A stretch of 64,000 bases of DNA from the NCBI GenBank assembly GCA_046351535.1, contig JAXLYG010000023.1, positions 1-64,000 on the forward strand, read 5' to 3'. The position numbers were made by a program, and so were the translations under genes. Of the stretch, positions 12,560-48,018 are shown in pieces; position 1 is the first letter of the stretch, and every line of letters starts with the position of its first letter. This DNA is from Polyangiales bacterium. Its GTDB lineage: Bacteria; Myxococcota_A; Polyangia; Polyangiales; Ga0077539. Below the pieces are notes generated by a model. The model saw only the letters and a list, made by a program, of their open reading frames with translations, ran no database searches and had not been told where the DNA came from.

Positions 12560-13573
12560 GTGGACATCCACTCAGCGACCGACAGCGCGGCGAAGGGCAA
12601 GCTGCTCCCGATCTATCTGCTCGCGGGCGACGAGCGACTGCTCATCACGCGATGCGCCGACGCGATCCGCGCGGCCACCGTCGGGGGCGGGCCGAGGGGT
12701 CTCTCGGAAGACCTCTTCGACGCGAAGCAGACGACGGGCGCGACGATCATCAACGCGTGCCGCACGCTCCCCATGATGGCGAAGCGTCGCCTCGTGGTGG
12801 TGCGCGGCGTCGAAGAGATGCGCAAGGCCGATCAGGAGACGCTGCTCCCCTACCTCGACAAGCCCGAGCCGAGCGCCGTGCTCCTGCTCGTGGGTCACGG
12901 CTTCGACATGCGTTTGAAGCTCGCGCTCACCGCGAAGGAGAAGGGCTTTCTCTTCGTCGCCAAGGCCCCGTCGGAGGGAGAGCTCGCGCCCTGGATCGAG
13001 CGCGAGGCCAAGGCCCGCGGCGCCACGCTGGAGCCCGGCGCGTCGGACTCGCTCGCGATGCTCATCGGCCCCGACCTGTCGCTCCTCGGCGACGCGCTCG
13101 AGCGGTTGCAGCTCTACACCGCGGGCGGTCCCATCACGACGCGCGCCGTCGACGAGGTGGTGACCGCGGTGCGAGAGATCCCCGCGTGGGACCTCGCCGA
13201 CGCGATCGGTCAGCGCAACGTCGCGTCGTGCATGACGATCCTCGCGCGGCTCACGGCGCAGCGGCAGCACGCGCTCCCGACGCTCGGGCTCATCGCGCGG
13301 CAGATCCACTCGCTCGCGAAGGCCAAGGCCAACGCCGAGGGCAAGCTCCCCGGCGCGCTCGCGTCGGTGCTCAAGATGCCCCCCTTCGCGGCCGACAAGG
13401 TCGCGCAGCAGGCGAAGAAGTGGACCTCGCCGCAGCTCTCGCGCGCGATCCGCGTGCTCGCGGCCACCGACGCGGCGCTCAAGGGCTCGAAGCGCGGCGA
13501 CGAGCGCGTGCTCGAGGAGTGCGTCATCGCCCTCTGCGGCGGACCGGGGATGGGCGAGGCCCCCTCGCGGTAG
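12560..13573 (+). CDS. holA: DNA polymerase III subunit delta
   Basis: LPIYLLAGDERLL...LVVVRGVEEMRKADQETLLPYLDKPEPSAVLLLVG and the C-terminal helical domain (QRQHALPTLGLIARQIHSLAKAK) are typical of HolA. Divergent from the M20 gene. Confidence 0.85.
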   Translation: MDIHSATDSAAKGKLLPIYLLAGDERLLITRCADAIRAATVGGGPRGLSEDLFDAKQTTGATIINACRTLPMMAKRRLVVVRGVEEMRKADQETLLPYLDKPEPSAVLLLVGHGFDMRLKLALTAKEKGFLFVAKAPSEGELAPWIEREAKARGATLEPGASDSLAMLIGPDLSLLGDALERLQLYTAGGPITTRAVDEVVTAVREIPAWDLADAIGQRNVASCMTILARLTAQRQHALPTLGLIARQIHSLAKAKANAEGKLPGALASVLKMPPFAADKVAQQAKKWTSPQLSRAIRVLAATDAALKGSKRGDERVLEECVIALCGGPGMGEAPSR

Positions 13574-13628: not shown

Positions 13629-14486
13629 ATGAAGCCAGGGGCTCGCGCGACCGACATGCATGTGTGCCCGCAGTTCACCGGGCCCATCCCCCACGTAGGC
13701 GGACCGATCATCCCCGCGGCGCCGACGCCGACGCAGGCCGAGACGCTCCAGGCCGCGCGGCTCGCGGACTACGCGTTCTGCGTGGGCCCTCAAGACGTGG
13801 TCTTTCAGGGCGCCTCGACGGTGCTCGTCGGGGGCCTGCCCTTCGCAGGTCGGTTCGACTCCACGGCGCACTCGGGGGTCATCATGATGGCCGCGAGCAC
13901 GGTGATGCTCGGCGGCCCGACCTTCTCGCTCCCGCCCAACTTCAGGGTGCGCGGCGGCGCGGCCTTTCAGAACGCCACGATCCGCGACCTCTACTACCTC
14001 TCGACGCTCCCGTCGGGTCGCGCGCTCATGCAGCGCCTCGAAGACTCTGGCGAGACCATCACCTTCGTGCCCGAGAGCGACCCCCACAACTCGTTCTGCT
14101 CGCCCGCGAGCGACTTTCTCGCGCGCCACGGCATCCCGACGGGATCGACCGTGAGCTACAACCCCGACGTCGCGCTGCGCGCGTATGACTCGGGCAACAA
14201 CCTCATCGACATGCCCCCGCAGGCGGTGCTCGGCCACGAAATGGTGCACGCGCTCAACAACGCCGAGGGCACGCATCACTACGGCACCGACCCCGCGGGC
14301 CCGGCCACGCAGCCCGGCATCGAAGAAGAAGAGTCTTCGGCCATCGGAACGGGCAGCCACAGCGGCGACTACCCGACCGAGAACGACCTCCGCAACGACA
14401 TGGGCGGAGGCGTCGGGCGACGCGACAACCACTACGGGCAGAACACCCCGGCGCCCACCGGCAACCGCCGCCCCGGAGGCTACTGA
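13629..14486 (+). CDS. PAAR-like (DUF4150) polymorphic toxin with C-terminal HExxH metallopeptidase-like domain
   Basis: N-terminus (MHVCPQFTGPIPHVGGPIIPAAP...VLVGGLPFAGRFDSTAHSGV...MLGGPTF) matches the PAAR_like/DUF4150 spike-tip fold. C-terminus carries GHEMVHALNNAEGTHHYG followed by an acidic run (IEEEESSAIGTG), i.e. HExxH plus a downstream Glu as in NleD/M91-like or Tox-MPTase domains. Confidence 0.8.
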   Translation: MKPGARATDMHVCPQFTGPIPHVGGPIIPAAPTPTQAETLQAARLADYAFCVGPQDVVFQGASTVLVGGLPFAGRFDSTAHSGVIMMAASTVMLGGPTFSLPPNFRVRGGAAFQNATIRDLYYLSTLPSGRALMQRLEDSGETITFVPESDPHNSFCSPASDFLARHGIPTGSTVSYNPDVALRAYDSGNNLIDMPPQAVLGHEMVHALNNAEGTHHYGTDPAGPATQPGIEEEESSAIGTGSHSGDYPTENDLRNDMGGGVGRRDNHYGQNTPAPTGNRRPGGY

Positions 14487-14491
14487 CCGCC

Positions 14492-15067
14492 ATGAACGTC
14501 TCGCTGCGCTTCACACACCGCTTCGACGGCCGCGACCTCGTCATCGCGTGGACCTTCGCCAACCGCGAGTCCGCGGAGCTCGGCGTCTTCAACCTCATCG
14601 AGGTCGTGCGCCCCGACGGGACGCTGAGCTTCTCGCCCGAGGTCGCCTGGGTCGAGTTCGACGAGGGCGTGCTCACGGTCTCGCAGCGCGCCCTCGCCGC
14701 GCCGCCGGGCCTCGCGATGGCCGCGCGCGTGCCGCCTTCGTGCTCGCGCCTCGCGGCGAGCGCCGACAGCGCGGGAGAGGTCCGCGTCCCGCTGCCGCTG
14801 CGCGTGATGCACACGTATCGCCGCGCGGCGCTCGGCGGACAGGTCGTGGCCGATGTGCCCCGCGAGGCGAGCGTGCTGCGCTTCTCGATGGGCGTGTTTC
14901 CCCTCGACGACCGGTGTCGCCTCGCGGCGGAGCAGCCCGCGTTCCCCGAGGTGTTCTCCGCGCTCCCTCCGGGCGCCGCGCTCGCGCGACAGGAGATCGT
15001 GAGCGCCGAGGTCGCGCTCGCGCACCCCGTCGCGGTGCTCGATTACCGGAGCGTGCCTTGGGACTGA
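14492..15067 (+). CDS. putative immunity protein for upstream PAAR toxin
   Basis: Starts 3 bp after the toxin stop on the same strand. 191 aa, no signal peptide, non-repetitive composition. Its position downstream of a polymorphic toxin is the main evidence. Confidence 0.55.
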   Translation: MNVSLRFTHRFDGRDLVIAWTFANRESAELGVFNLIEVVRPDGTLSFSPEVAWVEFDEGVLTVSQRALAAPPGLAMAARVPPSCSRLAASADSAGEVRVPLPLRVMHTYRRAALGGQVVADVPREASVLRFSMGVFPLDDRCRLAAEQPAFPEVFSALPPGAALARQEIVSAEVALAHPVAVLDYRSVPWD

Positions 15068-15483
15068 GGTGGCTCCCGCTCGCGGGGTTCGTGGCCGCGT
15101 GCGCCGCGACGCCCGCGCGGGTTCAGGTCGACCGCGAGGCCGCGCTCGCGCTCGGACAGCGCGCGGTCTTTCACGCCGCGCACGGCTGCGAGGTGCTCTT
15201 CGAACGCGTCGTCGAAGACGGACGCTGCCCGCGGGGGCGGCAGTGCGCCGCTTCGAACCCCGTGCGGGTGAGCGTGCGGATCACCTGCGCGGGCAGCGCG
15301 CGCAGCGAGGAGCTCGCCGTGCTCGACCGCGACGTGGGCGAGCCGCGCATGCAGGGCGTGAGGTCGTGCGCGCCCATCGACGGCGCCGTGCTTCGCCTGC
15401 GCGACGTGACGCCGTACCCCGGCGCGTCGTCGGAGCGAACGCGCGCGGTCCTCGTCGTCGAAGGGCGCTGCGGCGGGCCTTGA
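15058..15483 (+). CDS. small Cys-rich lipoprotein
   Basis: In-frame TTG/CTG start near 15058-15064 (LRWLPLAGFVAACAATP: lipobox VAAC). 6 Cys in ~140 aa. Overlaps the stop of the upstream gene. Start codon uncertain. Confidence 0.4.
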   Translation: MGLRWLPLAGFVAACAATPARVQVDREAALALGQRAVFHAAHGCEVLFERVVEDGRCPRGRQCAASNPVRVSVRITCAGSARSEELAVLDRDVGEPRMQGVRSCAPIDGAVLRLRDVTPYPGASSERTRAVLVVEGRCGGP

Positions 15484-15510: not shown

Positions 15511-17796
15511 TCAGCAGTTGAGCTTCACGAGGGCGCCGGTCACCTCGGCGTTGGCGTTGAGGTTCACCTGCGCGCCGCCCGACGAGGTCATCGTCGCGTT
15601 GCTCGTGAGGTTCACCGCCGCGCCGCCGTTGGAGTGCATGTTGGCGTCGGCCGTGAGGTGCACCATCCCGCCGCCGCTGCCGTGCATGTTGGCGTCGGCC
15701 GTGAGGTACACCTGCGCCCCGTCGTGGGCGTGCATGTCAGCGTTGGCGGTGAGGTACACCTGGGCCCCGTCGGCGGACTTGAGGTCGGCGTTTCCCGTGA
15801 GATAGAGCTGCCCGCCGCCCGAGGCCGTCATGCGCCCGTTGGCGTCGAGGTAGACCTCGGCGCCGCCGCCCGCCACGAGCTTGATGTGGCCGGGGTACAT
15901 CTCGATCTTGCTCCCGCCGCACTCGAAGATGATCGAGTCGGGCGCGGTCATCTTGATGTTCTGCGACACCTCGACGATGTAGTCGCCGGTCACGTTGAGC
16001 TTCGCGCCGTGAAAGTCTCCGCGACCCGCGCCGTCGACGGTGGTGATCTGGTTGCCGTGCACGTGGATGGTCTCGTTGCCCCCCACGCCGAGGGAGCGGC
16101 TCCCTCCCACCGACACGCTCTGGCTGCCGTCGACGCGCATCGTGTGGTTGTGGAGCACCTTCTCGTCGAGGTCGCGCTGCGCGTGCATGTGGATGAGCTC
16201 GTGCCCCGCGGCGTCCTCGAAATAGAGCTCGTTGTAGCCGTTGCCGCCCGGTGAGCTGTTCGTTCGAATGATGCTGCGCGTGGGGTTGGCCTCGAGCTGG
16301 TCGACGGGCGGCGGCGGGTGGTTGTCGAGGTTGTAGACGCAGCCCGTGATGAGCGGACGGTCGGGGTTGCCATCGAGGAAGGTGACCACCACCTCCATGC
16401 CCACGCGGGGGTTGAACACCACGCCCCAGCCCGCGCCCGCCCACGTCTGCGCCACGCGGATCCAGCACGAGCTGTACTTCGACTGCTGCGCGCGCGACCG
16501 CAGCTCGGGGCGCTCCCAATGGAAGCGCACGAGCACGCGGCCGTAGAAATCAACGCACACCTCGGCGTTGGGCGCGCCGGGCATCGCCATCACCTGCGCC
16601 GTCTGCGCGCCGTGGATGCGCGGCCGTCGCACGGTCCTCGCGGGGCGGTACACGGTGCCCTCGGGGACGAGCGTGAACTTGTTCCCGTAGCGCTCCTCGT
16701 CGACGGGCGGATGCGGGTCGTGATCGCCCTCGGCCACGCGGCCCCAGTGCTCTGCCGTGACGATGGTGAAGGGACCCTTCTCGGCGCCGTCTTCGTCGGT
16801 GACCGTCACGCGTCGACCGGGCATGAAGCCCGTGACCACGCCGCGCCCGCTCCAGGTCTCGGCCTGCACCGTGCGCTCGGCGAGGCGCTGCGAGGCGCGC
16901 GTCGCGAGGTCGTTGTTCGCGTAGTAGTGGTCGGCGTTGTAGTCGTAGAAGGTCGCCTCGGCGGGGTAGTCGTAGAGCGAGCGCTCGCCAGCAGATGCGG
17001 GCGACGACTGCGTGGTGGCGGCCTCGCGACCGGGCGACGACTCGTCGGCGCGGTAGGGATGGGTGAAGTCCCAGTCGCGCAGGGTCACGCCCGTGGGCGC
17101 GAGCGCGAAGCGCGTCTCGAGCACGCGCACGCTCTCGGTGTCGAGCGTCGATCCCCCTTCGCCCATCACCGGCACCGCGCCCGCCGCGATCGTGGGGACC
17201 ACCTCGGCGAACGCGTCGACGGCGCTGTCGTCGGCCAGCACGAGCTGCTCGCCGCCCGCCTCGTGGCGGAAGTAGTACGTCACGCCCTCGTCGGCGAGGA
17301 GGCGCTGGATGAAGTCCAGGTCGGTCTCCTGGTACTGCACGCAGAACTCTCGAACGGGGTGCGACTCCATGCGAACGGCCGACGTGTCGAGGCCGCTGTC
17401 GCCCTGGTAGACGCCCGCCGCAGCGAGCACCTCGCGCACCACGTCGATCGCGTGGAGGTCCTGAAAAACACGGCAATCGCGGCGCTGCGAGAGGAGCCAC
17501 AGCGAGGGCACGAGGAGCGCCCGCACGTGGCGCCGACGCACCACGGCGCCGAGGTCTTCGGCGGCGCGAATGACGCCCGCCACGCGACGCGTGAGGGCGC
17601 CGCGGGTGATGGTGAAGGTCGCGGGTCGACCGAGGAGCCCGCGCAGGTCGGAGCGCTCGTCTTCCCACAGGTCGATGACGGCCTCGTAGACCTCGGAGAG
17701 GCCCTCGTGGAGCCTGAAGCTCCGCACCTTCCAGCCCGTCGCGGGCCCGACGGCCCCGCGAAACTCGTAGTCTGCCTCGGGGAGCAGGTCGCTCAT
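15511..17796 (-). CDS. vgrG: type VI secretion spike protein VgrG with C-terminal repeat extension
   Basis: ATG at 17796 (MSDLLPEADYEF...). gp27-like and gp5/OB regions (RFHWERPELRSRAQQSKYSSCWIRVAQTWAGAGWGVVFNPRVGMEVVVTFLDGNPDRPLITGCVYN) and a beta-helix (IHMHAQRDLDEKVLHNHTMRVDG...). The last ~115 aa are degenerate ~15-aa repeats (GAQVYLTANADMHAH...). Confidence 0.9.
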   Translation of the reverse strand: MSDLLPEADYEFRGAVGPATGWKVRSFRLHEGLSEVYEAVIDLWEDERSDLRGLLGRPATFTITRGALTRRVAGVIRAAEDLGAVVRRRHVRALLVPSLWLLSQRRDCRVFQDLHAIDVVREVLAAAGVYQGDSGLDTSAVRMESHPVREFCVQYQETDLDFIQRLLADEGVTYYFRHEAGGEQLVLADDSAVDAFAEVVPTIAAGAVPVMGEGGSTLDTESVRVLETRFALAPTGVTLRDWDFTHPYRADESSPGREAATTQSSPASAGERSLYDYPAEATFYDYNADHYYANNDLATRASQRLAERTVQAETWSGRGVVTGFMPGRRVTVTDEDGAEKGPFTIVTAEHWGRVAEGDHDPHPPVDEERYGNKFTLVPEGTVYRPARTVRRPRIHGAQTAQVMAMPGAPNAEVCVDFYGRVLVRFHWERPELRSRAQQSKYSSCWIRVAQTWAGAGWGVVFNPRVGMEVVVTFLDGNPDRPLITGCVYNLDNHPPPPVDQLEANPTRSIIRTNSSPGGNGYNELYFEDAAGHELIHMHAQRDLDEKVLHNHTMRVDGSQSVSVGGSRSLGVGGNETIHVHGNQITTVDGAGRGDFHGAKLNVTGDYIVEVSQNIKMTAPDSIIFECGGSKIEMYPGHIKLVAGGGAEVYLDANGRMTASGGGQLYLTGNADLKSADGAQVYLTANADMHAHDGAQVYLTADANMHGSGGGMVHLTADANMHSNGGAAVNLTSNATMTSSGGAQVNLNANAEVTGALVKLNC

Positions 17797-18350
17797 GCTC
17801 GGCTCCAATCCGGTCCGTGGAGGGTGTGAAAGCTGATCTGACAGGTGCCCGGCACGATGCCCTCCTCGCGCGCGCGGCCGTGACGGTCGAGGGTGCCCGC
17901 GCGAACGCCGCCGTCGGGCATCGTGATGCGATAGGGGACGTCGGCCATGTCGCGCCCGTCCTGATCGACGAGGTGGATCTCGATCCAGCTCGTGTCGTGC
18001 GGCGAGTCGGGCGCCTCGGGCTCGTCGGCGGGGTCGCTCCCGAAGGCCGCCGTGGGCCTCGCGCGCGTCACGCGATACGCCACCACGCGCCGCACGCGGA
18101 GGGCGTCGGCGACGCGGCGCACGAGCTCGTCGGCCTCGACCCACGAGGCGTCGTCCACGGCGGATCCGAGCGTGCGCAGCACGTCGAGGAGCGCGCCGCG
18201 GAGCCACACGTCATCGCGCAGGCAGCGCTCGATGAAGGCCGCCGCCGCCTCGCGGTGGAGCTTCACCCCGCGCGTCTCGGTGGTCACGTCGCTCGGGAGG
18301 TAGAGGGTCACCTCGCCGTCACCGTCAGGGAGTCTCGTGAGGTACCGCAT
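17793..18350 (-). CDS. hypothetical protein in vgrG operon (185 aa)
   Basis: ATGA overlap with the vgrG start, and 4 bp after the upstream gene stop. Sequence MRYLTRLPDGDGEVTLYLPSDV... No family recognised. Could be an adaptor/chaperone or immunity component. Confidence 0.6.
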   Translation of the reverse strand: MRYLTRLPDGDGEVTLYLPSDVTTETRGVKLHREAAAAFIERCLRDDVWLRGALLDVLRTLGSAVDDASWVEADELVRRVADALRVRRVVAYRVTRARPTAAFGSDPADEPEAPDSPHDTSWIEIHLVDQDGRDMADVPYRITMPDGGVRAGTLDRHGRAREEGIVPGTCQISFHTLHGPDWSRA

Positions 18351-18354
18351 GCGC

Positions 18355-20253
18355 TCACTCCAGCGGCGAGAGGACCGCCGCGCCGTTCGCGCGGATGCGG
18401 GCCTCCTGCGCGATGCCCACGGCGGGCGTGTCGTAGGCCACGGCGGCCTCGTCGAAGCGCTTGCTGCCGTCGACGGGGTGATCGCCCGACGTTCCGTTCC
18501 GCATCACCTGCGTGTTCACCGTCGCGTGGATCGCGTCGAGCATCACGTGCCCGCACTCGTGCGGTCCGCTCACGGGGTTGTTGTCGGTGCCGTCCATCAC
18601 GATCTGCGCGACGGTCGCCGAGCGGATCACCTGCGCGATCGCCTGGCGCCCCGCCGTGTAGATGTTCCCCGGCATGAGGGCCTGCCCGCGGTCGCCTGAG
18701 GTGTGCGCGCCGATGACGAAGAGGTCGATGCGGTCGCTGCCCGTGTCGTAGGCCTGCGCGAGCACGCGCTGCTGGATCGACCCGATGACCCAGTCCTGCC
18801 GACCGCCCGCGGCCCAGCCCACGAAGGCGCCGACGTTCACGCGCCCCACGGTGATCGTCTGCGAGGGATCATTCGCGGCGAGGGCCTCGACGGTCACGCG
18901 TCCGCCGTCGGGGTCCGTGATCACGATGTCCGCGGAGCCTCCCGCGATGGTGACGTCGAGCGGCGGCGGGTTCTGCACCACGCGCACGTTGAAGGTCCCG
19001 TCGGCGTTGATGAGCGCCGCGAGCGCGTTGGCCGTCGTGATCGGCGTGTCGCCCGCGGTGAACGCGCGCGGACCGATGACCGCGACCTTGTCGGCCACGC
19101 CCGCCCTCGTCGCGCGAAGCGTGAAGCGCGCCTGACGCCCCGCGCCGCCCGTCGCGTTCGCGCCCGTGTAGTCCGAGACGGAGATGAGGTTCTCGAGGGG
19201 ATCGACGGTGCGCACGAGCTTGAGGTCGGGCGCCATCGAGATCTGCGCGTAGAGCCTGCGCCACCACTTGAAGACGCGGACGCGCGCGTCGTCTTCGGTC
19301 ACCACGCCCGCCGCGCCCGGCGCCGTTCGCACGATGTGAACCGCGAGCGCGATGCGTGAGCGGGTGGCGCCGCCGACGGTGGCGCGCGCGGCGACGACCT
19401 CGCCCGACGAGCCCGTGTAGCGCACGCGGACGTACTGCCCGAGGATGTCGACGGCGTGATCGGTCGAGTCCCAGTCGGTGAGGAGCGTCTGCGTGGGCGC
19501 CGCGGCGAGGTCCTGGTCGTCGACGACGAGGCGCAGGTAGCGCGAGCGAAAGCGCTTCGTCCCCGCGACGCGGTGGAGCTCGACCTGCAGCGTGCGCGCG
19601 GGCGCGAAGTCCGCCGGGTCGTGGTCGAGGGGGATCCAGAGGCGCTCGCCCACGTGAATCACATTGGGGTCGGGATGCGCCGCGGCCCACGCGCGGTTGC
19701 GCGGGTGCAGCGTGATCGTGCGCCAGTCTTCGATGCCGTAGCGCGCGGCGATGCGCGAGAGCGACTCGCCCGCCGCGACGACGTGCGTGCGCCCGTTCCG
19801 CAGCGCTTCGAGCGTGACGCGCGCCGCGGGGATCGAGTCTCCCCCTTCGCCCTCGTCTTCGACCTCGATCTTGAAGTTGTCCCGGTCCGTCGACGGGTCG
19901 GTGAAGCCCGCGGGGAGGTCCGCGGTGGTGACGCGGTTGCTCACCTCGACGCGCGTGCGCACCACGGCGGCGGGCGCGGCGGGAGCCCCGAGGTCGTCGA
20001 CGATGCGCACCACCGCGGGCTTCGCGACGACGGCCCTGAACTCGTGGATCGACTCGGTGCCGCCCGCGAGGACCTTCACCTCGGGGTCGGGGATGGTCAC
20101 CGCGTCGCCGGGGAGGCACTTCCACGTCTCGTGTCGCTTCGCGCGGAGGGCGGCGTTGGCCGCGTGGTCCCAGATCGCGCGCCACGACGCGAAGCCGTTC
20201 TCCTTCGCGTAGCGGGTGAAGCTGTCTCCCTCCGCGTAGCGCACGGTCCTCAC
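18355..20253 (-). CDS. LysM-domain protein with C-terminal HExxH motif (candidate T6SS cargo/effector)
   Basis: Two LysM-like segments (YAEGDSFTRYAKENGFASWRAIWDHAANA...PGDAVTIP; HVVAAGESLSRIAARYGIEDWRTITLHPRN...GERLWIP). C-terminal GPHECGHVMLDAIH (HExxH). 632 aa. 4-bp overlaps with both neighbours. Confidence 0.7.
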   Translation of the reverse strand: MRTVRYAEGDSFTRYAKENGFASWRAIWDHAANAALRAKRHETWKCLPGDAVTIPDPEVKVLAGGTESIHEFRAVVAKPAVVRIVDDLGAPAAPAAVVRTRVEVSNRVTTADLPAGFTDPSTDRDNFKIEVEDEGEGGDSIPAARVTLEALRNGRTHVVAAGESLSRIAARYGIEDWRTITLHPRNRAWAAAHPDPNVIHVGERLWIPLDHDPADFAPARTLQVELHRVAGTKRFRSRYLRLVVDDQDLAAAPTQTLLTDWDSTDHAVDILGQYVRVRYTGSSGEVVAARATVGGATRSRIALAVHIVRTAPGAAGVVTEDDARVRVFKWWRRLYAQISMAPDLKLVRTVDPLENLISVSDYTGANATGGAGRQARFTLRATRAGVADKVAVIGPRAFTAGDTPITTANALAALINADGTFNVRVVQNPPPLDVTIAGGSADIVITDPDGGRVTVEALAANDPSQTITVGRVNVGAFVGWAAGGRQDWVIGSIQQRVLAQAYDTGSDRIDLFVIGAHTSGDRGQALMPGNIYTAGRQAIAQVIRSATVAQIVMDGTDNNPVSGPHECGHVMLDAIHATVNTQVMRNGTSGDHPVDGSKRFDEAAVAYDTPAVGIAQEARIRANGAAVLSPLE

Positions 20254-21107
20254 GGCGAAGCCTCCGGCGCGAGCACGGCGCGGAGGCTCCCCGCGGCGCG
20301 CAGCTCGGTGACCTCTTCGGCGCTGAGGTCACCGCCGAAGACCTGCACCGCGGCGAGGGCCTTCGCGCGCTGCCCCGCGGGCGCGTCGTCGCCCATGCGC
20401 GCGAGGCACCGTCGAAACGCGGCCATCGGACGCGACGGGTCGCTGAACCCGACGCGCGCGAGGAGCCACACGCACGCGGGTTCGAGGTGCTCGCGCCAGG
20501 TCATGTCGCGGCCGACGTAGACGTCGGCGCAGCGATCGAGGCGCGCCTCCTCGGAGGGCTGCGCGGTGATGCTCCGCCACGCCGCGAGGGCCTCGGTGAG
20601 CCGCGGAAGGGCGACGTCGCGCACGTCGGCGGCCTCGCGCGCGAGGAGGCCCGCCTGCGGGTCGCGCGACGAGACCTGCTCGCGAACGAAGCCGTCGAGG
20701 CGAGCGCTCAGCGTCGAGGCGTCACCGAGCGCCCACGCGACGGGGAGGAGCTCGGCGAAGCGATCGTTCCAACGCGGGTGCTGCGCGATGGGCGCGAAGG
20801 CGGCGGAGGCCTCTTCGCGGGCGCGCGTGTCACCGACGAGGGCGACGGCGCGAACGGCCTGTGCAGCCACGGCGAGGGCGTTCGCGTCGCGGCCTTCGGG
20901 GCGCATGCGAGGGCGCCACGCGTCGACGGCGGCGTCGAGGTGATAGAAGGCCGTGAGCTCCGCGAGGCGCGTCGCGGGCATCGGGGCGAGGTCTGCCGCG
21001 CGGAGCTGCTCGACGACGAAGCGCTCGACCTCTTCGCGCGGGAGCCCCGAGGGGAAGCGATCGGCGCGAGGGTCGAAGTGCGCGACGTAGTCGTGGAGGG
21101 TGGTCAT
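20250..21107 (-). CDS. hypothetical alpha-helical protein, first gene of vgrG operon (286 aa)
   Basis: ATG at 21107 (MTTLHDYVAHFDPRADRFPSGLPREEVERF...). No signal peptide. Ala/Leu/Arg-rich helical protein. 4-bp overlap with the downstream LysM gene. Size and position fit a T6SS adaptor (DUF4123-like) but the similarity is not established. Confidence 0.55.
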   Translation of the reverse strand: MTTLHDYVAHFDPRADRFPSGLPREEVERFVVEQLRAADLAPMPATRLAELTAFYHLDAAVDAWRPRMRPEGRDANALAVAAQAVRAVALVGDTRAREEASAAFAPIAQHPRWNDRFAELLPVAWALGDASTLSARLDGFVREQVSSRDPQAGLLAREAADVRDVALPRLTEALAAWRSITAQPSEEARLDRCADVYVGRDMTWREHLEPACVWLLARVGFSDPSRPMAAFRRCLARMGDDAPAGQRAKALAAVQVFGGDLSAEEVTELRAAGSLRAVLAPEASP

Positions 21108-23084: not shown

Positions 23085-25154
23085 ATGAGCGCAGATTCCG
23101 CCCTTTCGTCGGCTGCACCGGCGCTGTTCCCTCGGGAGCCGCGTCGCGTCGGCAAGTTCGATTTCCTCATGCGGCTCGGACAGGGCGGCATGGCGACCGT
23201 CTACCTGGCCCGAACGGTCAGCACGGGCGGCTTCCAGCGCCTCGTCGCGATCAAGCTGATGCACCAGTTCCTCGGGGCTGATGGGCAGTTCGTCGAGATG
23301 TTCCTCGACGAGGCCAGGGTGGCGGCCAACATCCGTCACCCCAACATCGTCTCGATCGTCGACCTGGGCACCGACGGCGACAACCTCTTCATGGTGATGG
23401 ACTACGTCGAGGGCGACACCCTCGCCGCCATCGAGGGAACCGCCGCCCGCCTCGGCCGCGCCATTCCCCTCGGGGTCGTCCTGCGGATCGTCCTCGACTC
23501 GCTCGCCGGCCTCGACGCCGCGCACGAGCTCAGGACGCCCGACGGCGTGGACCTCAAGGTCGTCCACCGCGACGTCTCTCCGCAGAACATCCTCATCGGC
23601 GTCGATGGTGCCGCGAGGCTCACCGACTTCGGCATCGCGCGCGCCGAGCAGCGCATCGCCACGACCCGCACCGGGATGCTCAAGGGCAAGGCGCCCTTCA
23701 TGGCCCCCGAGCAGTTCGAGGGAAAGCCCGTCGACCGCCGCGCCGACGTCTTCGCGATGGGCGTCACGCTCTGGGAGGCCGTCGCCCTCCGTCGCCTCTA
23801 TCCCGGCCGCGAGAGCTACGAGCAGGCCGTTCGCAACGCCCGCGCGCCGTACCGCAAGCTCAAGGACATCCTCCCGTCGGTGCCCGACAGCCTCGACGAC
23901 ATCGTCCGCAAGGCGCTCGCGCCCGACCCCGCCGATCGCTACCCCACGGCGGCCGCCTTCGCCGACGCGCTCGAAGAGGAGTTCCGCGCCATCCTCGCGT
24001 CGCACCGCCAGGTGGGATCGTTCATGTCGGCCGTCGCGTCGGAGAAGATCCAGCGCGAGCGCGACGCCGTTCGCAAGGCCCCGAAGCCCGAGGAGAGCAA
24101 CCCTCGCGCTGGCGGGCGGCCCTCGCGTTCGACCGCGTTCGGCATGCGCAGGGTCGACGAGCCCATCGCGCACACCGCCGCGAAGGCCTTCGAATCGAGG
24201 CCGCCGGAGCGCTTCCCCTCGGTGCCCCCGGAGCCGCCTGCGAACGACGTCTCGGAGGCCGACGACGACGAGGTCGAGGCCGCGCTCCAGGCGCTCAACG
24301 AGATGCCCGAAGACGTGGTCGAAGCCGCGGAGCTCCCGGTGCCGTCGCTGCACCGCGCGGCGACCCCGGCTCGGATGCGCTCCGAGGATGACCTCCCCGT
24401 GGCCCGCGGCAACACGCCGACGCGCAACGTGGGCCTCCCCGCGCGGCGCGCGCGCTCGTCGACGCTCATGCACCCGCCGCCCACGCAGACCGGCGCGCGC
24501 AAGAGCACACCCCCGCGCCTGAGGAGCACCGTCGCCAACGTCGACAACGCGCAGTTCCGCGGCGTCCCCAAGGCCCGCGGCACCATCGGCGCGCCGCCCG
24601 CCGCGCCCGCGAAGCACGACGAGCTCGACCTTCAGCCTCCGCGTCGCCGCAGGGCCCCCTCGCTCGCAGGACCGCGCGCGATGCTCGAAGCGCCGCGCAT
24701 GCCCCAGGAGCCCGTCGAGCCTCCCTCGCTCGACCTCGCGCCCGCGACGCCCGTGCCGCCGGCGCCCGTGCGTCCGAGCGTTCGCCCGCTCGGCGAAGGC
24801 ATCGCCGACTCGACCATCGAGTTCGATCTCGTCGCCCGGCAGGCGCGCAAGCACGGCGCCGAGAACAAGCTCCCGGCCACCACGATCACCGCGGCCAGCC
24901 GCGTCGAGCGCCCCCGCGCCGACGAGCGGAAGGTCAACAGCGAGGCGCGACGGCTCATCGCCGACACCGCGATCGTGCTCACGCCGACGACACCCGAACA
25001 GCCCGGCACGAAGCGTCAGCCGACGGCCGTGGCGCGCTTCCCCTCGCTCGTTCCGTCGCCGAAGACGAGCCTGCTCCAGAACCGCTGGGTCGCGGGGAGC
25101 GTCGTCGTCGCCGTGCTCTCGGTGGTCTTCTTCGTCCTCGCCCGCGGCCTCTGA
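23085..25154 (+). CDS. Ser/Thr protein kinase with C-terminal transmembrane anchor
   Basis: Hanks kinase motifs (LGQGGMATVYLA, AIK, HRDVSPQNILI, DFG, APE). Long Pro/Ala-rich linker. C-terminal TM helix (WVAGSVVVAVLSVVFFVLA). Confidence 0.9.
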   Translation: MSADSALSSAAPALFPREPRRVGKFDFLMRLGQGGMATVYLARTVSTGGFQRLVAIKLMHQFLGADGQFVEMFLDEARVAANIRHPNIVSIVDLGTDGDNLFMVMDYVEGDTLAAIEGTAARLGRAIPLGVVLRIVLDSLAGLDAAHELRTPDGVDLKVVHRDVSPQNILIGVDGAARLTDFGIARAEQRIATTRTGMLKGKAPFMAPEQFEGKPVDRRADVFAMGVTLWEAVALRRLYPGRESYEQAVRNARAPYRKLKDILPSVPDSLDDIVRKALAPDPADRYPTAAAFADALEEEFRAILASHRQVGSFMSAVASEKIQRERDAVRKAPKPEESNPRAGGRPSRSTAFGMRRVDEPIAHTAAKAFESRPPERFPSVPPEPPANDVSEADDDEVEAALQALNEMPEDVVEAAELPVPSLHRAATPARMRSEDDLPVARGNTPTRNVGLPARRARSSTLMHPPPTQTGARKSTPPRLRSTVANVDNAQFRGVPKARGTIGAPPAAPAKHDELDLQPPRRRRAPSLAGPRAMLEAPRMPQEPVEPPSLDLAPATPVPPAPVRPSVRPLGEGIADSTIEFDLVARQARKHGAENKLPATTITAASRVERPRADERKVNSEARRLIADTAIVLTPTTPEQPGTKRQPTAVARFPSLVPSPKTSLLQNRWVAGSVVVAVLSVVFFVLARGL

Positions 25155-25708: not shown

Positions 25709-27211
25709 TCAGGCTCGCAGAACGCGCACCAGCGCGATGACCACGCAGGCCGCCACGAAGATCACCCACGCCGCGACGGGGACGCGCCGACGCCGCGCCG
25801 CGCGGTTCGACTCCGTGGGAGGGCTCTGCAGCGGCGTCCAGCGCACGGGTTCGAGGGCCACCTCGACGTGCTCGACCTCGCGGTCGTCGATCACCTCGAT
25901 GGAGAGCGGCGCGACGGCCTCGGGCGGCACGGGAGTCGGGGTGGCGCCGACCTTTCGCTCCATCGGGAGCTCGCGCGTGACCGACTCGTCGGGGTCCGCC
26001 ACGCGCTGCGCGGCCTTCGGAAAGAAGCGGCTCGCGGGCGCGTTGGGGTCGGGCGCCTCCATCGATACGCGCCGACGCTGCGGCACGAGCGGGATCGGTT
26101 CGAGCACCGACGCCTCGAGCATCTCGGTGACCGACGGGAGCTTCGGCTGCGGCGCGGCGACCTGCGGCGGCGGGCGATCGGAGCCGCCCGCCACACGACG
26201 CGGCGCGGCCCTCAACGCCGCGCGCTCGCGATCGAGCTTCTCGCGCGCCACCGCGGCGATCAGGGCGCCGACCTCGCGCGACGACGCGAGCGTGGGGCCG
26301 AACGCCTGCTCGATCGCGTCGGCGAAGGCCGCCGCCGTGGGGTAGCGATCGGCGGGGTCGTGCGCGAGCGCCTTCGCGCAGATCTCGTCGAGCACCGGCG
26401 GCGCGCCCTTGAGAAAGCCGCCGAGCGGACGGTACGGGGCCCGCGCGTTCTGCCGCGCGCGCTCGTAGGTCTCGCGCCCCGTGAAGAGGCGACGAAGCGT
26501 GAGAGTCTCCCAGAGCGTGACGCCCATCGCGAAGACGTCGGCGCGGCGATCGAGCTCCGTCGCCTCGAGCTGCTCGGGGGGCATGTACGACAGCTTGCCC
26601 TTGAGCATCCCGAGGGAGGTCGCGACGAGGCGGCCGCGCGCCCGCGCGACGCCGAAGTCGGTGAGCCTCGCGGTGCCGTCGACGCCGATGAGGATGTTCT
26701 GCGGGGTCACGTCGCGGTGGACGAGGCTGAGGGGCTCGCCGCGCTCGTCGCGGAGCTCGTGCGCAGCGTGGAGCCCCGAGAGCACGTCGATCGCGATGCG
26801 CAGCGCGATGGGGATCGGCACGCCCTTTCCGAGCGCCGTCGCCGTGGACTGCACCGCCGCGAGGGTGTCTCCCTCGACGTAGTCCATCACGTTGTAGAGC
26901 AGGCCGTCTTCCATCCCCACGTCGAGAATGCTCACGACGTTGGGGTGGAGGATGTTGGCCGCGACGCGCGCCTCGTGGAGGAACATGTCGACGAAGCCGC
27001 GATCTTCGGCCAGGTGGGGGTGGAGCACCTTCACGGCCGCGAGGCGCTCGAAGCCGCGGTCGTCGCGCATGCTCCCGACGGCGCGCGCGAGGTAGACGTT
27101 CGCCATGCCCCCCGCGCCGATGCGCTCGATGACCTCGTAGCGACCGACACGGAAAGGCAGCGACCGCCCGGCCACACGTCGCGCGTCTTGCTTGGGGCGT
27201 TCTGCGGTCAT
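25709..27211 (-). CDS. Ser/Thr protein kinase with C-terminal transmembrane anchor (paralog of 23085..25154)
   Basis: IGAGGMANVYLA, AVK, HRDVTPQNILI, DFG, PPE motifs. C-terminal TM helix (VPVAAWVIFVAACVVIALV). The catalytic domain is highly similar to the convergent kinase. Confidence 0.9.
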   Translation of the reverse strand: MTAERPKQDARRVAGRSLPFRVGRYEVIERIGAGGMANVYLARAVGSMRDDRGFERLAAVKVLHPHLAEDRGFVDMFLHEARVAANILHPNVVSILDVGMEDGLLYNVMDYVEGDTLAAVQSTATALGKGVPIPIALRIAIDVLSGLHAAHELRDERGEPLSLVHRDVTPQNILIGVDGTARLTDFGVARARGRLVATSLGMLKGKLSYMPPEQLEATELDRRADVFAMGVTLWETLTLRRLFTGRETYERARQNARAPYRPLGGFLKGAPPVLDEICAKALAHDPADRYPTAAAFADAIEQAFGPTLASSREVGALIAAVAREKLDRERAALRAAPRRVAGGSDRPPPQVAAPQPKLPSVTEMLEASVLEPIPLVPQRRRVSMEAPDPNAPASRFFPKAAQRVADPDESVTRELPMERKVGATPTPVPPEAVAPLSIEVIDDREVEHVEVALEPVRWTPLQSPPTESNRAARRRRVPVAAWVIFVAACVVIALVRVLRA

Positions 27212-42825: not shown

Positions 42826-43682
42826 TCAGTGCTGACCGGTGAGGACCTGCGCGGGCGCGGTGAGGATCTGCGTGGGGTTGGCGCCCTGCACGCCGGGGAT
42901 CGGGAGCCCCTGCCCTCCCCCGTTGTTGAGACCGGGAACGGGCACCGGGAAGGTGTTCTGCGACGACTGCCCGCCCGCGATGCCGGGGATGGGCACGCCG
43001 GGGATCGGTCCCGCGCTCGCGCCGTTGTTCATGCCGGGGATCGCAGGCGTCGGGATCGCCGGAGGACGCCCCGTGCCCGACTGGAACCACGACTGCCCCA
43101 TCGAGCGCGCGCCCGCATAGACAGCCTGTGCGGCGGCCATGCAGGGCGTCTCGAGGAGCCCGCGATGCTCCGAGCGACAGATCGCGTTGAGGTCTTCGTG
43201 GAGGCGGTCGTCGATGCGCGTGCGACGGCCCTCGGTGCGGTCGAGGGCGAGGCCGGTGCCGCCATAGTTCCGGTAGCCGAAATCGTGGCGGTTGCAGGCG
43301 CGGTTGAAGCTCTCGCGGAACGGCCCGCTGATCTCCCCGAAGGAGCACCCGTCGGCCGACCAGTCGAAGGGCGGCGGATGGAGCGCGCGCATGTTCTGAA
43401 AGGTCTCGAGCGGGAGGTTCATGTACCCGTCGGCGGTCATCACGAGGAGCTGCCTCGGCGCATTGGCCGGGAGCGGCGTTCCGAGCGCGGTTCCGCGCGA
43501 GCGCGTGGCGCGACCGCGGGAGCGACCCGACGAGGCCGTGGCGGGGCTGTTGCCGAGCGCGCCGTTCATCACGTTGGTGGCCGCCCCGACCATCTGATCG
43601 ATGGGGACGTTCTGCGCAGAGACCGTGGGCGAGAGGGCCGCGACGGCGACCCCGAGCGTGAAGGCCGTGACGTACGTTCGCA
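42826..43682 (-). CDS. secreted prokaryotic phospholipase A2 (Phospholip_A2_3-like) with Pro/Gly-rich C-terminal tail
   Basis: ATG near 43682 (MRTYVTAFTLGVAVAALSPTVSAQ). DGCSFGEISGPFRESFNRACNRHDFGYRNYG matches the catalytic His-Asp segment of Streptomyces-type secreted PLA2 (…ACARHDFGYRNY…). C-terminal IPGxx repeats. Confidence 0.75.
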
Positions 43683-43719
43683 TGGCGGGCAACGGTGCTC
43701 GAAAGAGGGGCGCCGTGCA

Positions 43720-44584: not shown

Positions 44585-45145
44585 TCAGTGGTTGTCAGTC
44601 CCGGTCTTCGCGGGCGCGTGGGCGTCGTTGGCGGGCGCGCTGACCTTCATCTCGGCGCGGACCTTCGAGGCCCTCGCGAGGCCCTGTGCGACGGAGGCGC
44701 CGTGCGCTTCGACGTAGTCCCGCACGCCGCCGTAGCTCTCGGCGGGAATGCGTCCCCGCTCGATCCTGCGGGTGACCTCCTCGTAGGCTTCGCGGAGCAT
44801 GGCGTCGGCCTTCGGCTCGATCACGGCGCGGCGGGCCTCGACGTATTGCCGCAGCGCTTCGAGGCGCGCGAGAAAGCTCCAGATCGCATCGAGCTCGTTG
44901 GCGACGGCGCCGCACCGCTGTTGAGAGGGCGCGAGATCGCCGAGGTCTTCGCCGTTCACCTCGATCTCGCGCAGCCCGCGGAGGCACTCCGCGCGATTGC
45001 CCTCGGCGATGCGCCACTTGCTGTCGCCCGCGGCTTCGAGCACCTCCTTGCGATCACCAGGGACCACGGGCAGTTGCGCCACGCTCATCGACTGCCCACC
45101 GAACACGATCACGCCGTTGATCGGCGTCTGCAACGTCGTCGCCAT
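44585..45145 (-). CDS. hypothetical protein (186 aa)
   Basis: ATG at 45145 (MATTLQTPINGVIVFGGQSMSVAQLPVVPGDRKEVLEAAGDSKWRIAEGNRAECLRG...). Mixed composition, no family recognised. A hairpin repeat lies immediately 3' of the stop. Confidence 0.55.
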   Translation of the reverse strand: MATTLQTPINGVIVFGGQSMSVAQLPVVPGDRKEVLEAAGDSKWRIAEGNRAECLRGLREIEVNGEDLGDLAPSQQRCGAVANELDAIWSFLARLEALRQYVEARRAVIEPKADAMLREAYEEVTRRIERGRIPAESYGGVRDYVEAHGASVAQGLARASKVRAEMKVSAPANDAHAPAKTGTDNH

Positions 45146-45405
45146 CGGACACTCCGCGAGCGAACCGCCGCCGTCGAACGCACCGCGCGCCCTCCTCCGC
45201 AGTCACTCACAAGAGGCGGGAACGGCCACGTCTCGGAGTTCTTGAACGCTTTTTGAATTTTTCTCTCCGTCCCTCCCATGCGTCATGAGGATGCGCGCTC
45301 GACGCGGCGCGTCTCTCCGAAGATGTGATTTTTCGTGTGAGGTCACGAAGGAACGAAGCATCGGGTACCTCTCCCCCGCGTCGCGCGTCTGCGAAGCGAT
45401 GCCGG

Positions 45406-45768
45406 TCACGTCCGCCGCGCGCGTCTTCGAAGCGCCGCGTTGGGGAACTCCGGGAGCACCGCACCATCCCGCGCGACCGCGCGCACGATCCAGAGAACCC
45501 CGGCGAGGAGCACGGCCCGGCCGGAGCGTTCCTTCAGCTCCCTCCACGAGATGGCATCGTGGTCGAAGCCGGGGTAGGTCACGCAGAACGAGGGGAGGCT
45601 CGCGTCGTCGACGGTGACGCCCACCGTGGCCTCGCTGTCGGAGAACGCCAGCACGAGCGTGTCGCCCTGGATCTCCCCACGCACCGCGTCACCGCAGACG
45701 GCCCTGATCTCCGCGAGGACCTCAGCGAGCATTCCCGCCTCCGCTGCATTCACGGCCCGCGGTCCCAC
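45406..45768 (-). CDS. possible small hypothetical protein (120 aa)
   Basis: ATG start. Contains W/Y/F/C (SLPSFCVTYPGFDHDAISWRELKERSG). No family recognised. Confidence 0.35.
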   Translation of the reverse strand: MGPRAVNAAEAGMLAEVLAEIRAVCGDAVRGEIQGDTLVLAFSDSEATVGVTVDDASLPSFCVTYPGFDHDAISWRELKERSGRAVLLAGVLWIVRAVARDGAVLPEFPNAALRRRARRT

Positions 45769-45819
45769 GCGGGTCGCGGTGTCGAGCCGAGCACGATCGC
45801 GCGGCGATCGCGTCGCGGT

Positions 45820-46155
45820 TCACTCGGGGTGGTACACATATCGGGCGTAGCGCTCCGCATAGAACGCCTCGAGCGACAGGCGCGATTCGAACAGCTCCGA
45901 CCAGAGCTCGTAGCCATCGACGAGGGGCGCTCCGTCCTGCTCATAGCCGATTCGCTCGGGGTGGATGGCGAGGTCGCGATCCTTCGCATAGTCGAGCGAC
46001 TCGGCCCTGGCCTTCTCATGGGCCTCGGTCCAGTCTCGCGCGTTGAAGGAGACGACGCGCTCCTCGAAAACGTTGGTTCCGCACTCTTGGTCACGCCGAA
46101 GTGGTAGACGGTTCGGATGGCGTACCAGGGCATCGGGGTCACCCCTGTACGGCAT
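45820..46155 (-). CDS. hypothetical protein (111 aa), acidic/aromatic-rich
   Basis: NVFEERVVSFNARDWTEAHEKARAESLDYAKDRDLAIHPERIGYEQDGAPLVDGYELWSELFESRLSLEAFYAERYARYVYHPE has a natural-looking composition. A second frame upstream (MPWYAIRTVYHFGVTK) suggests a possible frameshift near 46080. Confidence 0.45.
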   Translation of the reverse strand: MPYRGDPDALVRHPNRLPLRRDQECGTNVFEERVVSFNARDWTEAHEKARAESLDYAKDRDLAIHPERIGYEQDGAPLVDGYELWSELFESRLSLEAFYAERYARYVYHPE

Positions 46156-46653
46156 CCTTGAGCGTCCGGGCGAGCGCCATCACCTCCTCGGCGGGGCACG
46201 CGCGCACGAAGACCTGCACCCACGCCGGTAGCATCACGCAGTGTGAGGCATAGAACAGCCTCTCGTCTCGCATCGGGCGTCCGGCGAACACGAAGTCGAT
46301 GCCGTCGGTCTCGTCGAGTCGCAGGTCGAGCGACGTACCGGCTTCCCGCTCCAGACGCGCCTGCTCGTCGATCAGGGGGCGCAGCTTGCGCTTCACCATC
46401 AGCACGGTGTCACTCCCCGAGAAGAGCCTCGCGTCGGCCTTGACCTCGAGCAACCGGGGACCTTGCAAGTCGGCCAGCGTCTTCGCCTGCATGTTGATCC
46501 GGAACACCTCGAAGATGACGTGCGGCCCATGCTCCCTGAGCATCTCGTCCTCTCTCTTGAAGTGTGCCTCGACGGCGTCGTGCCCCTCGATCGTCGTGCC
46601 ATCGACGACGTTCACGACTCGGACATTGTCGTAGCGCGTGTCGGTCTCTTTCA
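46139..46653 (-). CDS. hypothetical protein, NTF2/SnoaL-like fold suspected (171 aa)
   Basis: ATG near 46653 (MKETDTRYDNVRVVNVVDGTTIEGHDAVEAHFKREDEMLREHGPHVIFEVFRINMQ...). The pattern of polar and hydrophobic residues fits a cone-shaped alpha+beta barrel, but this is tentative. Confidence 0.5.
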
Positions 46654-46724
46654 TCGGTTGCACACGTCGCGCAGCCGTCGTCGATCTGGCGCTGCCGATG
46701 GTAGGTCTCTGGAGCGCTCCTCGC

Positions 46725-47432: not shown

Positions 47433-47529
47433 GTCGCGGTCTCCGGGTCAGCGCGCGGCCGAAGCGTGCCCGCATGAACCGCCCTCGACACGCGACGTGT
47501 GAGCCCCTCGCCCGTCTGGAACCGTCGCG

Positions 47530-48018
47530 CTACTCAAGCTTCGCAAGCTCCTCCAGCAAGCACGCCTGAAGCTCTTCCCCCAGTTGAAAGAAACCGTCCG
47601 CCGACAAGATCACGTGTCGCGGGCTGGCCCGGTAGGAGCCAGGAAGAAGCTGTCCACCCCTGACCTCGAACCCGCCCACGATGTCCTCAGGCGGCACGGC
47701 GCCGTTCGGCGTTCGAGTCCGCTGGTCGATGACGTAGAGCCAGCCATCACCCTGTCGCCGGGCCGCCGCGACAAGGCCCGAAGCGCCCGGCCCACGACGG
47801 GCGATCACGTCGTGCATGAAGTCTACGAACACGCGGTTCCTCGCGAAGATCGCCGGGGTGATGTCCTCCCCGGGCTTCGGGGGCCGGAGCAGAACGCCGA
47901 CGATCGCCTCGGGCGCAAGCCCGCGCGCGAACACATGTTCGCCAGGCAGACAGCTTACATAGTGCTTGATCCCCTCGGGCGTATTGGACTCGTAGATGCT
48001 CATTGAAAACTCAGCCAT
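47530..48018 (-). CDS. hypothetical protein (163 aa)
   Basis: ATG at 48018 (MAEFSMSIYESNTPEGIKHYVSCLPGEHVFARGLAPEAIVGVLLRPPKPGEDITPAIFARNRVFVDFMHDVIARRG...). Natural-looking composition. No family recognised. Confidence 0.5.
   Translation of the reverse strand: MAEFSMSIYESNTPEGIKHYVSCLPGEHVFARGLAPEAIVGVLLRPPKPGEDITPAIFARNRVFVDFMHDVIARRGPGASGLVAAARRQGDGWLYVIDQRTRTPNGAVPPEDIVGGFEVRGGQLLPGSYRASPRHVILSADGFFQLGEELQACLLEELAKLE

Follow-up and report, generated by a model that had tools for sequence, protein, structure and literature searches.

The window analyzed here is a stretch of 64,000 nucleotides from a Polyangiales bacterium (GenBank assembly GCA_046351535.1, contig JAXLYG010000023.1, positions 1 to 64,000 of the forward strand), in which the GC content is about 72%, the value likewise given for the source genome. 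Between holA (12560-13573, plus strand) and a convergent vgrG gene, three tightly packed open reading frames (ORFs) lie on the plus strand, and we describe them as a probable effector-immunity cassette of a type VI secretion system (T6SS). An original prediction, made from the letters of the sequence, had presented them as a PAAR-like polymorphic toxin with a C-terminal metallopeptidase-like domain, an immunity gene and a small lipoprotein gene. The ORFs and motifs that it named are all present, and the features of the locus are as follows.

13629-14486, plus strand: toxin gene, PAAR-M91, 285 aa, third-position GC 0.90
13629-13943, plus strand: PAAR spike-tip domain, residues 1-105 (Pfam match at residues 17-86)
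13944-14483, plus strand: Peptidase_M91 (Tox-HopH1) domain, residues 106-285, about 180 aa
14235-14249, plus strand: HExxH motif (H203, E204 and H207), predicted to bind zinc and to be catalytic
14331-14333, plus strand: E235, putative third zinc ligand
14379-14384, plus strand: E251-N252
14421-14432, plus strand: R265..H268 (RxxH)
14492-15067, plus strand: candidate cognate immunity gene, 191 aa, without signal peptide, predicted all-beta
15058-15483, plus strand: gene of a small exported lipoprotein, 141 aa, TTG start, lipobox FVAAC
15511-17796, minus strand: vgrG, 761 aa, convergent with the module, with TIGR03361 and Pfam matches

A spacer of 5 nt, and not of 3 bp as first described, separates the toxin stop codon from the ATG of the 191-aa ORF. 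The lipoprotein start lies within the 3' end of the 191-aa ORF with an overlap of 10 nt, so the small lipoprotein gene does run across the stop codon of its neighbor as had been predicted, and its own end is 27 nt rather than 28 bp from vgrG, the 3' end of which indeed faces the module. In all three ORFs, third-position GC is 0.90-0.93 against 0.51-0.58 at the second position, which is the coding signature of this genome. The NCBI product MFO0648743.1 ("M91 family zinc metallopeptidase", from a Polyangiales metagenome-assembled genome, MAG) is identical to the window toxin, and MFO0648744.1 and MFO0648745.1, both named "hypothetical protein", are the NCBI calls for the 191-aa and 141-aa products; the 191-aa ORF also appears in NCBI as hypothetical protein U0326_21055, and the call for the lipoprotein has the same length of 141 aa. 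About ten near-identical strains also have all three together on the same contigs. Neither a sigma-70-like promoter nor an intrinsic terminator was found around the module, and the 64-kb window contained no tRNA, no Rfam match and no further copy of any module gene.

PAAR and M91 domains of the toxin

The N-terminus of the toxin matched the classical PAAR_motif family PF05488 with 46.5 bits for the isolated residues 1-105 and 41.4 bits for the whole protein, where the cut-off is 27. The peptide strings MHVCP, VGGPI, GGLPFAGRFDST and GGPTF are present in the toxin, and C13, H22, C51 and H81 of the PAAR domain are kept among 101 homologues. In the PDB, the N-terminus matched SalCis10 (9rce_c, 1e-16, residues 4-96) and a T6SS PAAR protein (8gra_J, 5.6e-11). 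The Pfam score and these spike-tip matches support the original view of the N-terminus as a spike-tip domain. The family label given to it was wrong, since PF13665 (DUF4150/PAAR_like) had no match on the isolated N-terminal 105 residues even at E<=10; the domain is a PAAR_motif with the same role. The original prediction had also stated that a lack of any PAAR_like/DUF4150 match at the N-terminus would speak against the toxin reading. A PAAR match was found there in the form of PF05488, and we judged that the toxin reading stands.

One homologue, P0120, is 54% identical to the toxin across the PAAR third, whereas its C-terminal domain is another one, PF15538, an apparent domain swap that would be the behavior expected of polymorphic toxins. 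With specialised PAAR effectors the cassette shares its architecture, gene order and setting in a vgrG island, and the PAAR module is common to other toxin domains. The toxin domain and the partner family in the window differ from those of the specialised PAAR effectors, and the window protein has neither a prePAAR nor a transmembrane region.

The C-terminus matched Peptidase_M91/Tox-HopH1 (PF14891) with a score of 60.3-61.4 bits, where the cut-off is 25, and the match spans profile positions 6-169 of 176 and residues 106-259 of the protein. This match and the motifs within it agree with the zincin-type HExxH toxin domain that had been proposed, and the Pfam comparison, which had been suggested along with it, settled the toxin family that the original prediction had left open. 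Of the two candidates named there, M91 stood and Tox-MPTase did not, because beyond PF05488 and PF14891 no other Pfam family, the Tox-MPTase families included, matched the toxin even at E<=10. The peptidase domain is also larger than first thought, about 180 residues (106-285) instead of about 90. Judged from its sequence, the toxin is a member of PF14891 by every criterion that could be checked. The match to NF041347, the model of the XopG/HopH/AvrPtoH subfamily of type III effectors, was 29 bits against a cut-off of 150 and covered residues 199-259 only.

The HExxH motif, read in GHEMVHALNN, and E235, which lies in the string IEEEE (E232-235), are invariant in the 101 homologues. E251-N252 is conserved in at least 90% of these sequences, as is H268, which is replaced by Y in some homologues, and R265 is invariant. 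Over the whole set, the invariant columns are C51, L201, H203, E204, H207, G214, E235, G240 and R265. According to Zhang et al. 2012, the signature of Tox-HopH1 is HExxH together with [DE]N (PMC3482391), and M91 peptidases and the light chains of botulinum neurotoxin (BoNT) have in common an active site of four elements, namely HExxH, the third-ligand Glu, a second-shell Glu and RxxY (PMC6367388; E261, E350). When mapped by spacing, HExxH, E235, E251-N252 and R265..H268 would form a complete active-site set of the BoNT/M91 type.

To the sequence evidence the structural model adds the fold. The AlphaFold2 model based on the 101-sequence alignment had a pLDDT of 97 and a pTM of 0.94, and the top 50 Foldseek matches in the PDB were all light chains or holotoxins of BoNT or BoNT-like toxins, with E of about 1e-5 and a probability of 1.00. 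On the strength of this model, the toxin domain is very probably a minimal BoNT-like gluzincin, predicted to act as a zinc endopeptidase, a judgment that we make jointly with that on the core of the mechanism set out below. The best structural match of the model is the light chain of botulinum and tetanus neurotoxins (MEROPS M27), with 140-210 aligned columns at the E value given above and what appears to be an equivalent active-site set of HExxH, third-ligand Glu, second-shell Glu and R-x-x-aromatic/His (PMC6367388). The sequence identity between the two is only 13-18%. The BoNT light chain has about 420 residues, whereas the window domain of about 180 residues is without the substrate-binding insertions that Mansfield et al. 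describe, and the window protein has neither the translocation nor the receptor domain of BoNT.

Past the end of the Pfam M91 model, the tail of the protein (residues 265-285, 14421-14483) has the pattern R-D-N-H-x-G ... (L)RPGG[Y] and is conserved up to the C-terminus in close homologues. R281, P282 and G283 are invariant among the homologues of at least 50% identity, and the pLDDT of the tail is about 88-96. This conserved tail could help to form the wall of the active site, could be autoinhibitory or could touch the immunity protein.

The 191-aa partner and the lipoprotein

A homologue of the 191-aa protein was found immediately downstream of the toxin in all 15 loci with readable downstream sequence, which are the window, L001-L004, L007, L008, L009, L012, L013, L014 (truncated), L015, L019, L020 and L021. 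As such, the toxin-immunity arrangement recognized in the original prediction recurs in each of them. Tandem copies of the partner gene are present at L012, where the second copy is broken, and at L017, L018 and L020. Over 12 pairs, the mean identity was 33% for the partner and 54% for the toxin, and the distance matrices of the two were correlated (Mantel r=0.39, p=0.006). Considering that position, strict linkage, duplication and rapid divergence make up the standard immunity signature, the 191-aa protein is likely to be the cognate immunity protein of the toxin and to represent an unannotated family.

In a full HMMER scan of 1.84 billion representatives, 317 members of the partner family were detected at E<=1e-3, nearly all of them stand-alone proteins of 190-205 aa, and a word-indexed search with the 191-aa protein returned 2 clusters only. 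Pfam, including its immunity families (the Imm families, SUKH and others), had no match for the window protein or for 77 family members, NCBIfam had none for the 191-aa protein, and the profile of the 77 partner sequences found no chain in the PDB. Zhang et al. list no immunity family for Tox-HopH1 (PMC3482391), and SED_RS06340 of Salmonella, the one M91 immunity protein that has experimental support, is a 110-aa protein with a single transmembrane segment. Taken together with the missing matches in Pfam, NCBIfam and the PDB, these points indicate that the 191-aa family is apparently unannotated. The fold matches of its structural model with a pLDDT of 49 (TMEM106B, factor XIII barrels, ApaG, arrestin and B. 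subtilis Ipi; TM 0.3-0.4) were those of a generic beta-sandwich and were not used.

Members of the partner family differ in their predicted location. Among the best 150 representatives, 104 start at the conserved domain and have no signal peptide, like the window protein, about 28-30 (about 20%) have an N-terminal extension with a lipobox, a twin-arginine (Tat) motif or a membrane anchor, and the remaining 15 are fragments. The exported protein P0175 is encoded by the sole gene after a PAAR-M91 toxin that follows vgrG (L021). In L020, a PAAR-M91 toxin is followed by two tandem copies, of which the first has no signal and the second is the exported P0166, and exported P0140 is likewise the second copy of a tandem pair (L018). 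Judging from these N-termini, most lineages have a cytoplasmic form of the predicted neutraliser, some have a periplasmic one and others have both.

In the case of the lipoprotein, the N-terminus, MGLRWLPLAGFVAAC, is a hydrophobic segment followed by the lipobox Cys, as seen by pattern inspection, and a lipobox is found in all four homologues too. The protein has seven Cys when that of the lipobox is counted, one more than in the original prediction, and four beyond the lipobox (C57, C63, C104 and C138) are kept in the homologues. Including the window, the family occupies five loci, always beside the toxin or the immunity gene, which bears out its place in the module. Its positions outside the window are these.

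L015/L016 and L019: lipoprotein gene after the immunity gene
L017: lipoprotein gene after two immunity copies
L004 (Sorangium): lipoprotein gene between AAA_21 and the toxin

At L015 and L017 the overlap between the lipoprotein start and the stop before it is 4 nt long (10 nt in the window), and at L007 an unrelated lipoprotein gene overlaps the stop of the immunity gene in the same position. The word-indexed search with the lipoprotein gave 3 clusters only, a metagenome scan with the lipoprotein alignment gave one locus, and the family had no match in Pfam or the PDB. The lipoprotein was also considered as a diverged or exported relative of the 191-aa protein ("LRLRDVxPWP" compared with "VLDYRxVPWP"); hhalign ruled this out (probability 0.3%). 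The lipoprotein is a clade-specific third gene of the module. Because the M91 toxin of Salmonella Dublin is toxic only in the periplasm and because the 191-aa family has exported paralogues, we tentatively suggest, on the basis of gene position only, that the lipoprotein may be a periplasmic guard, either a second immunity factor or an inhibitor.

Relatives of the cassette and the T6SS link

The word-indexed protein search with the toxin returned 127 clusters, and among the 120 matches listed, 118 have M91 and 106 of those have PAAR_motif as well. Most homologues are 275-295 aa long and come from metagenomes. Sorangium cellulosum So0157-2 and a Bryobacteraceae MAG are among the named carriers, and a genome scan (at least six loci) added Neoroseomonas terrae LMG 31159, which together with So0157-2 makes up the cultured carriers. 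A Myxococcota MAG with 93% identity, found in the genome scan, retains the junction of holA and the toxin. Short PAAR-M91 proteins make up more than 110 sequence clusters and occur across Myxococcota, Acidobacteriota and Alphaproteobacteria, and tblastn against plasmids recovered PAAR and M91 only as separate halves. The gene orders around the relatives are as follows.

L009-L011: TssE-TssF-TssG-ClpV-VgrG, then the toxin
P0111 locus: TssF-TssG-...-VgrG, then the toxin
L004, L007 and L008: vgrG, AAA_21, toxin
L020: vgrG, DUF6931, toxin
L014 and L021: vgrG, toxin
L003, L012 and L013: isolated cassette amid housekeeping genes

Directly or one gene apart, vgrG is located upstream of the toxin in 8 related loci (L004, L007, L008, L009-L011, L014, L020, L021 and the P0111 locus), and a T6SS core cluster ends in the cassette in at least two loci (L009-L011 and the P0111 locus). 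The position of relatives right after vgrG, and within a cluster of T6SS core genes in at least two loci, gives the T6SS link good support, and the original reading of the toxin as a T6SS-delivered effector is in accord with this. The cassette is mobile and is typically found in vgrG islands or T6SS clusters. Its quite different neighborhoods are not those of a housekeeping peptidase with orthologs in conserved synteny, which the original prediction had set up as the opposing outcome.

The VgrG protein in the window matched the T6SS-specific model TIGR03361 with 441 bits against a cut-off of 186, and it also matched Phage_GPD, Phage_base_V and Gp5_trimer_C. It is likely to be the spike carrier for the PAAR toxin. 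The gene had been called an orphan, which holds only in that no core gene of a T6SS turned up in the window. It is the last of four translationally coupled genes of an operon, the other three of which are listed here.

17793-21107, minus strand: three genes co-directional with vgrG, overlapping or abutting, a part of the context and not of the toxin cassette
20250-21107, minus strand: 285-aa gene, first of the four-gene vgrG operon
18355-20253, minus strand: 632-aa gene, with a weak LysM match and an HECGH (HExxH) motif near the C-terminus
17793-18350, minus strand: 185-aa gene, directly before vgrG in the operon

Over its C-terminal 80 residues, the 185-aa protein is similar to the C-terminal extension that a VgrG fragment carries in L021, and the N-terminus of the 632-aa protein resembles the PG_binding_1 proteins encoded beside that fragment. 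The three genes may provide the same spike with a second set of cargo.

Further genes accompany vgrG and the toxin in the relatives. An AAA_21 ATPase-like gene of about 330 aa occupies the interval between vgrG and the toxin in L004 (6262-7248), L007 (7000-8004) and L008 (7007-7999), and a DUF6931 gene does so in L020 (578-1165); both could be loading or accessory factors. No AAA_21 homologue was found in the 64-kb window. Genes for Ser/Thr protein kinases are located near vgrG/PAAR-M91 in the window (23169-25154, plus strand; 25709-27175, minus strand) and in L007, L008 and L009, which may simply be due to their abundance in Myxococcota.

Elsewhere in the window, an 819-aa protein (4468-6927, minus strand) has a major vault protein shoulder (PF11978, 98 bits), a vault repeat and an SPFH/Band 7 region. 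A 288-aa protein (42826-43692, minus strand) matched prokaryotic phospholipase A2 (PF09056, 70 bits), and, within a single string of minus-strand genes, it is encoded downstream of a PGA_cap protein and of a TPR protein of 1,715 aa. From about 45000 to 53000, the GC content falls to 0.61-0.68, compared with about 0.72 elsewhere, the GC skew reaches -0.28 at 52-53 kb, and the short ORFs are mostly without a Pfam match (DUF6980 and a weak alpha/beta hydrolase match were found). This region may be foreign DNA or a gene-poor island.

Proposed function and its alternatives

Taken all together, the cassette is very probably a T6SS effector-immunity module. The domain identities, the active-site conservation, the predicted fold, the strict linkage of toxin and partner and the T6SS context in relatives are directly supported. 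In the mechanism that we infer, the PAAR cone would cap the tip of a VgrG trimer, plausibly of the VgrG whose gene lies on the opposite strand at a distance of 27 nt, and firing of the T6SS would carry the spike tip and the protease into a neighboring cell. There, the M91 domain would cleave one or more target proteins, presumably with an antibacterial effect. In the producer and its sibling cells, the 191-aa protein would bind and block the protease, and the lipoprotein may be a lineage-specific third component, a guard that faces the periplasm.

Self-protection in two compartments, in which a cytosolic 191-aa immunity protein is joined by a separate disulfide-bonded lipoprotein guarding the periplasm, is a tentative extension of this mechanism that we regard as rather doubtful. 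If it were true, the protease would have targets, or would need interception, on both sides of the inner membrane, and different lineages would have reached a periplasmic guard by different routes, through an exported paralogue (L018 and L020), an unrelated lipoprotein (the window and L007) or the exported form only (L021).

Several observations weigh against an effector-immunity module of the T6SS. No T6SS core gene was present among the 36 predicted proteins scanned in the 64-kb window, and the cassette is convergent with vgrG and lies directly after holA, not downstream of vgrG. The cassettes of L003, L012 and L013 have no vgrG nearby. The model of the 191-aa protein, all-beta and built on an alignment of 3 sequences, is poor with its pLDDT of 49. 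NleD, the characterised M91 enzyme with known substrates, acts on eukaryotic kinases, and toxicity of the Salmonella M91 domain is confined to the periplasm (PMC13556075), while the 191-aa partner has no export signal.

The last of these points leads to an arrangement in which the toxin is periplasmic, the exported lipoprotein is the true immunity factor, and the 191-aa protein is a chaperone, a stabiliser or a loading adaptor, or protects before secretion only. The membrane-anchored immunity protein of the periplasmic Salmonella toxin (PMC13556075) is in keeping with it, and so is the overlap of the lipoprotein gene with the 191-aa stop in the window, L015 and L017; the unrelated lipoprotein of L007 is placed likewise. 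We consider this arrangement unlikely, since the lipoprotein family is missing from most of the toxin loci (L002, L003, L008, L009, L012, L013, L014, L020 and L021), whereas the 191-aa family is always present. Furthermore, lipoprotein, Tat and transmembrane forms within the 191-aa family itself (L021, and the second copy in L018 and L020) fit a neutraliser better than a loading chaperone, and the genes of known T6SS adaptors usually lie upstream of that of the effector. In place of bacterial competitors, the toxin of this soil myxobacterium could be directed, like NleD, against signaling in eukaryotic hosts or prey such as amoebae, fungi or nematodes, and the downstream gene would then not serve interbacterial immunity. 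The M91 members with known substrates are all eukaryote-directed effectors (NleD; PMC9846239, PMC3482391), the fold is closest to the BoNT light chains, which cleave eukaryotic SNAREs, and the M91 protein Tpe2 of P. aeruginosa is predicted to have no immunity gene (PMC9846239). This seems somewhat less probable still, because a partner that is tightly linked in 15 of 15 loci, evolves fast and is at times duplicated bears the hallmark of self-protection against an antibacterial toxin, the score against the XopG/HopH model of type III secretion system (T3SS) effectors is far under its cut-off (29 bits against 150), and the one T6SS M91 domain examined experimentally is antibacterial (PMC13556075). 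A trans-kingdom role of the toxin is possible.

Delivery by another machine was weighed in the same way. In the PDB, the PAAR domain matched best with SalCis10, which forms the tip of the spike in a contractile injection system, Zhang et al. count the Photorhabdus virulence cassette (PVC) among the delivery routes of Tox-HopH1 (PMC3482391), and T6SS core genes were not found in the window, all of which would suit a payload of an extracellular contractile injection system (eCIS), a PVC-like particle or another phage-tail-like particle. However, the neighboring gene scored 441 bits with the T6SS-specific VgrG model TIGR03361, homologous cassettes end clusters of TssE-TssF-TssG-ClpV-VgrG, and eCIS sheath, tube or baseplate genes were seen neither in the window nor in any locus, so that a payload of this kind is highly improbable.

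The effector-immunity module proposed here has a close counterpart in Salmonella. The M91 domain of SED_RS06335, a T6SS Rhs effector of Salmonella Dublin, acts against bacteria, and the protein encoded by the neighboring gene neutralises it (PMC13556075). The pair SED_RS06335/SED_RS06340 of Salmonella pathogenicity island 19 (SPI-19; PMC8867033, PMC13556075) and the window cassette have in common an N-terminal PAAR domain, a C-terminal M91 domain with HExxH, a predicted likeness to the BoNT light chain, an immunity gene directly downstream (a candidate one in the window) and a setting linked to the T6SS. SED_RS06335 has 1,406 residues and an Rhs cage between PAAR and toxin, whereas in the 285-aa window protein PAAR is fused directly to the protease. 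The two also differ in protection, as the single-pass SED_RS06340 acts on a periplasmic toxin, whereas the window has a soluble 191-aa partner, predicted to be all-beta, plus a separate lipoprotein. NleD of enteropathogenic and enterohaemorrhagic E. coli (EPEC/EHEC) and HopH1/XopG are the founders of MEROPS M91/PF14891/Tox-HopH1 and belong to the same Pfam family as the window protein, with HExxH and [DE]N, a zincin core of small size and the use of an injection machine for delivery in common. Unlike the window cassette, they are T3SS effectors with eukaryotic targets (JNK/p38 for NleD) and have no PAAR domain or immunity gene. Tpe2 (PA14_33970), encoded in the H3-T6SS cluster of P. aeruginosa, is a predicted M91 effector for which a BoNT-like active site was noted (PMC9846239); it lacks a PAAR fusion and, by prediction, an immunity gene.

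M91 proteins linked to the T6SS were already known bioinformatically, as PAAR-Rhs-M91 in Salmonella (PMC8867033), as Tpe2 (PMC9846239) and as Tox-HopH1 with a T6SS route (PMC3482391). The toxin family is already named, the source database names the exact protein as M91, and the direct fusion of PAAR to M91 without Rhs is a shorter architecture of the same kind. Modest novelty lies in the candidate immunity family, which is unannotated and has a dual localisation, in the lipoprotein, which is specific to a clade, and in the possible protection in two compartments. In genome annotation, the 191-aa family could be named a candidate immunity family of M91 toxins.

Among known proteins, M91 peptidases are those most closely related to the protease of botulinum neurotoxin, NleD alone has known substrates, and the first experimental evidence of an M91 protein that kills bacteria dates only from 2026. 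The PAAR-M91 protein and its strictly linked partner are a compact and tractable toxin-antitoxin pair, which could be used to find the bacterial substrate of M91 and to solve the complex of protease and inhibitor. The pair could also help to explain why the protective protein stays in the cytoplasm in most lineages but is exported in others.

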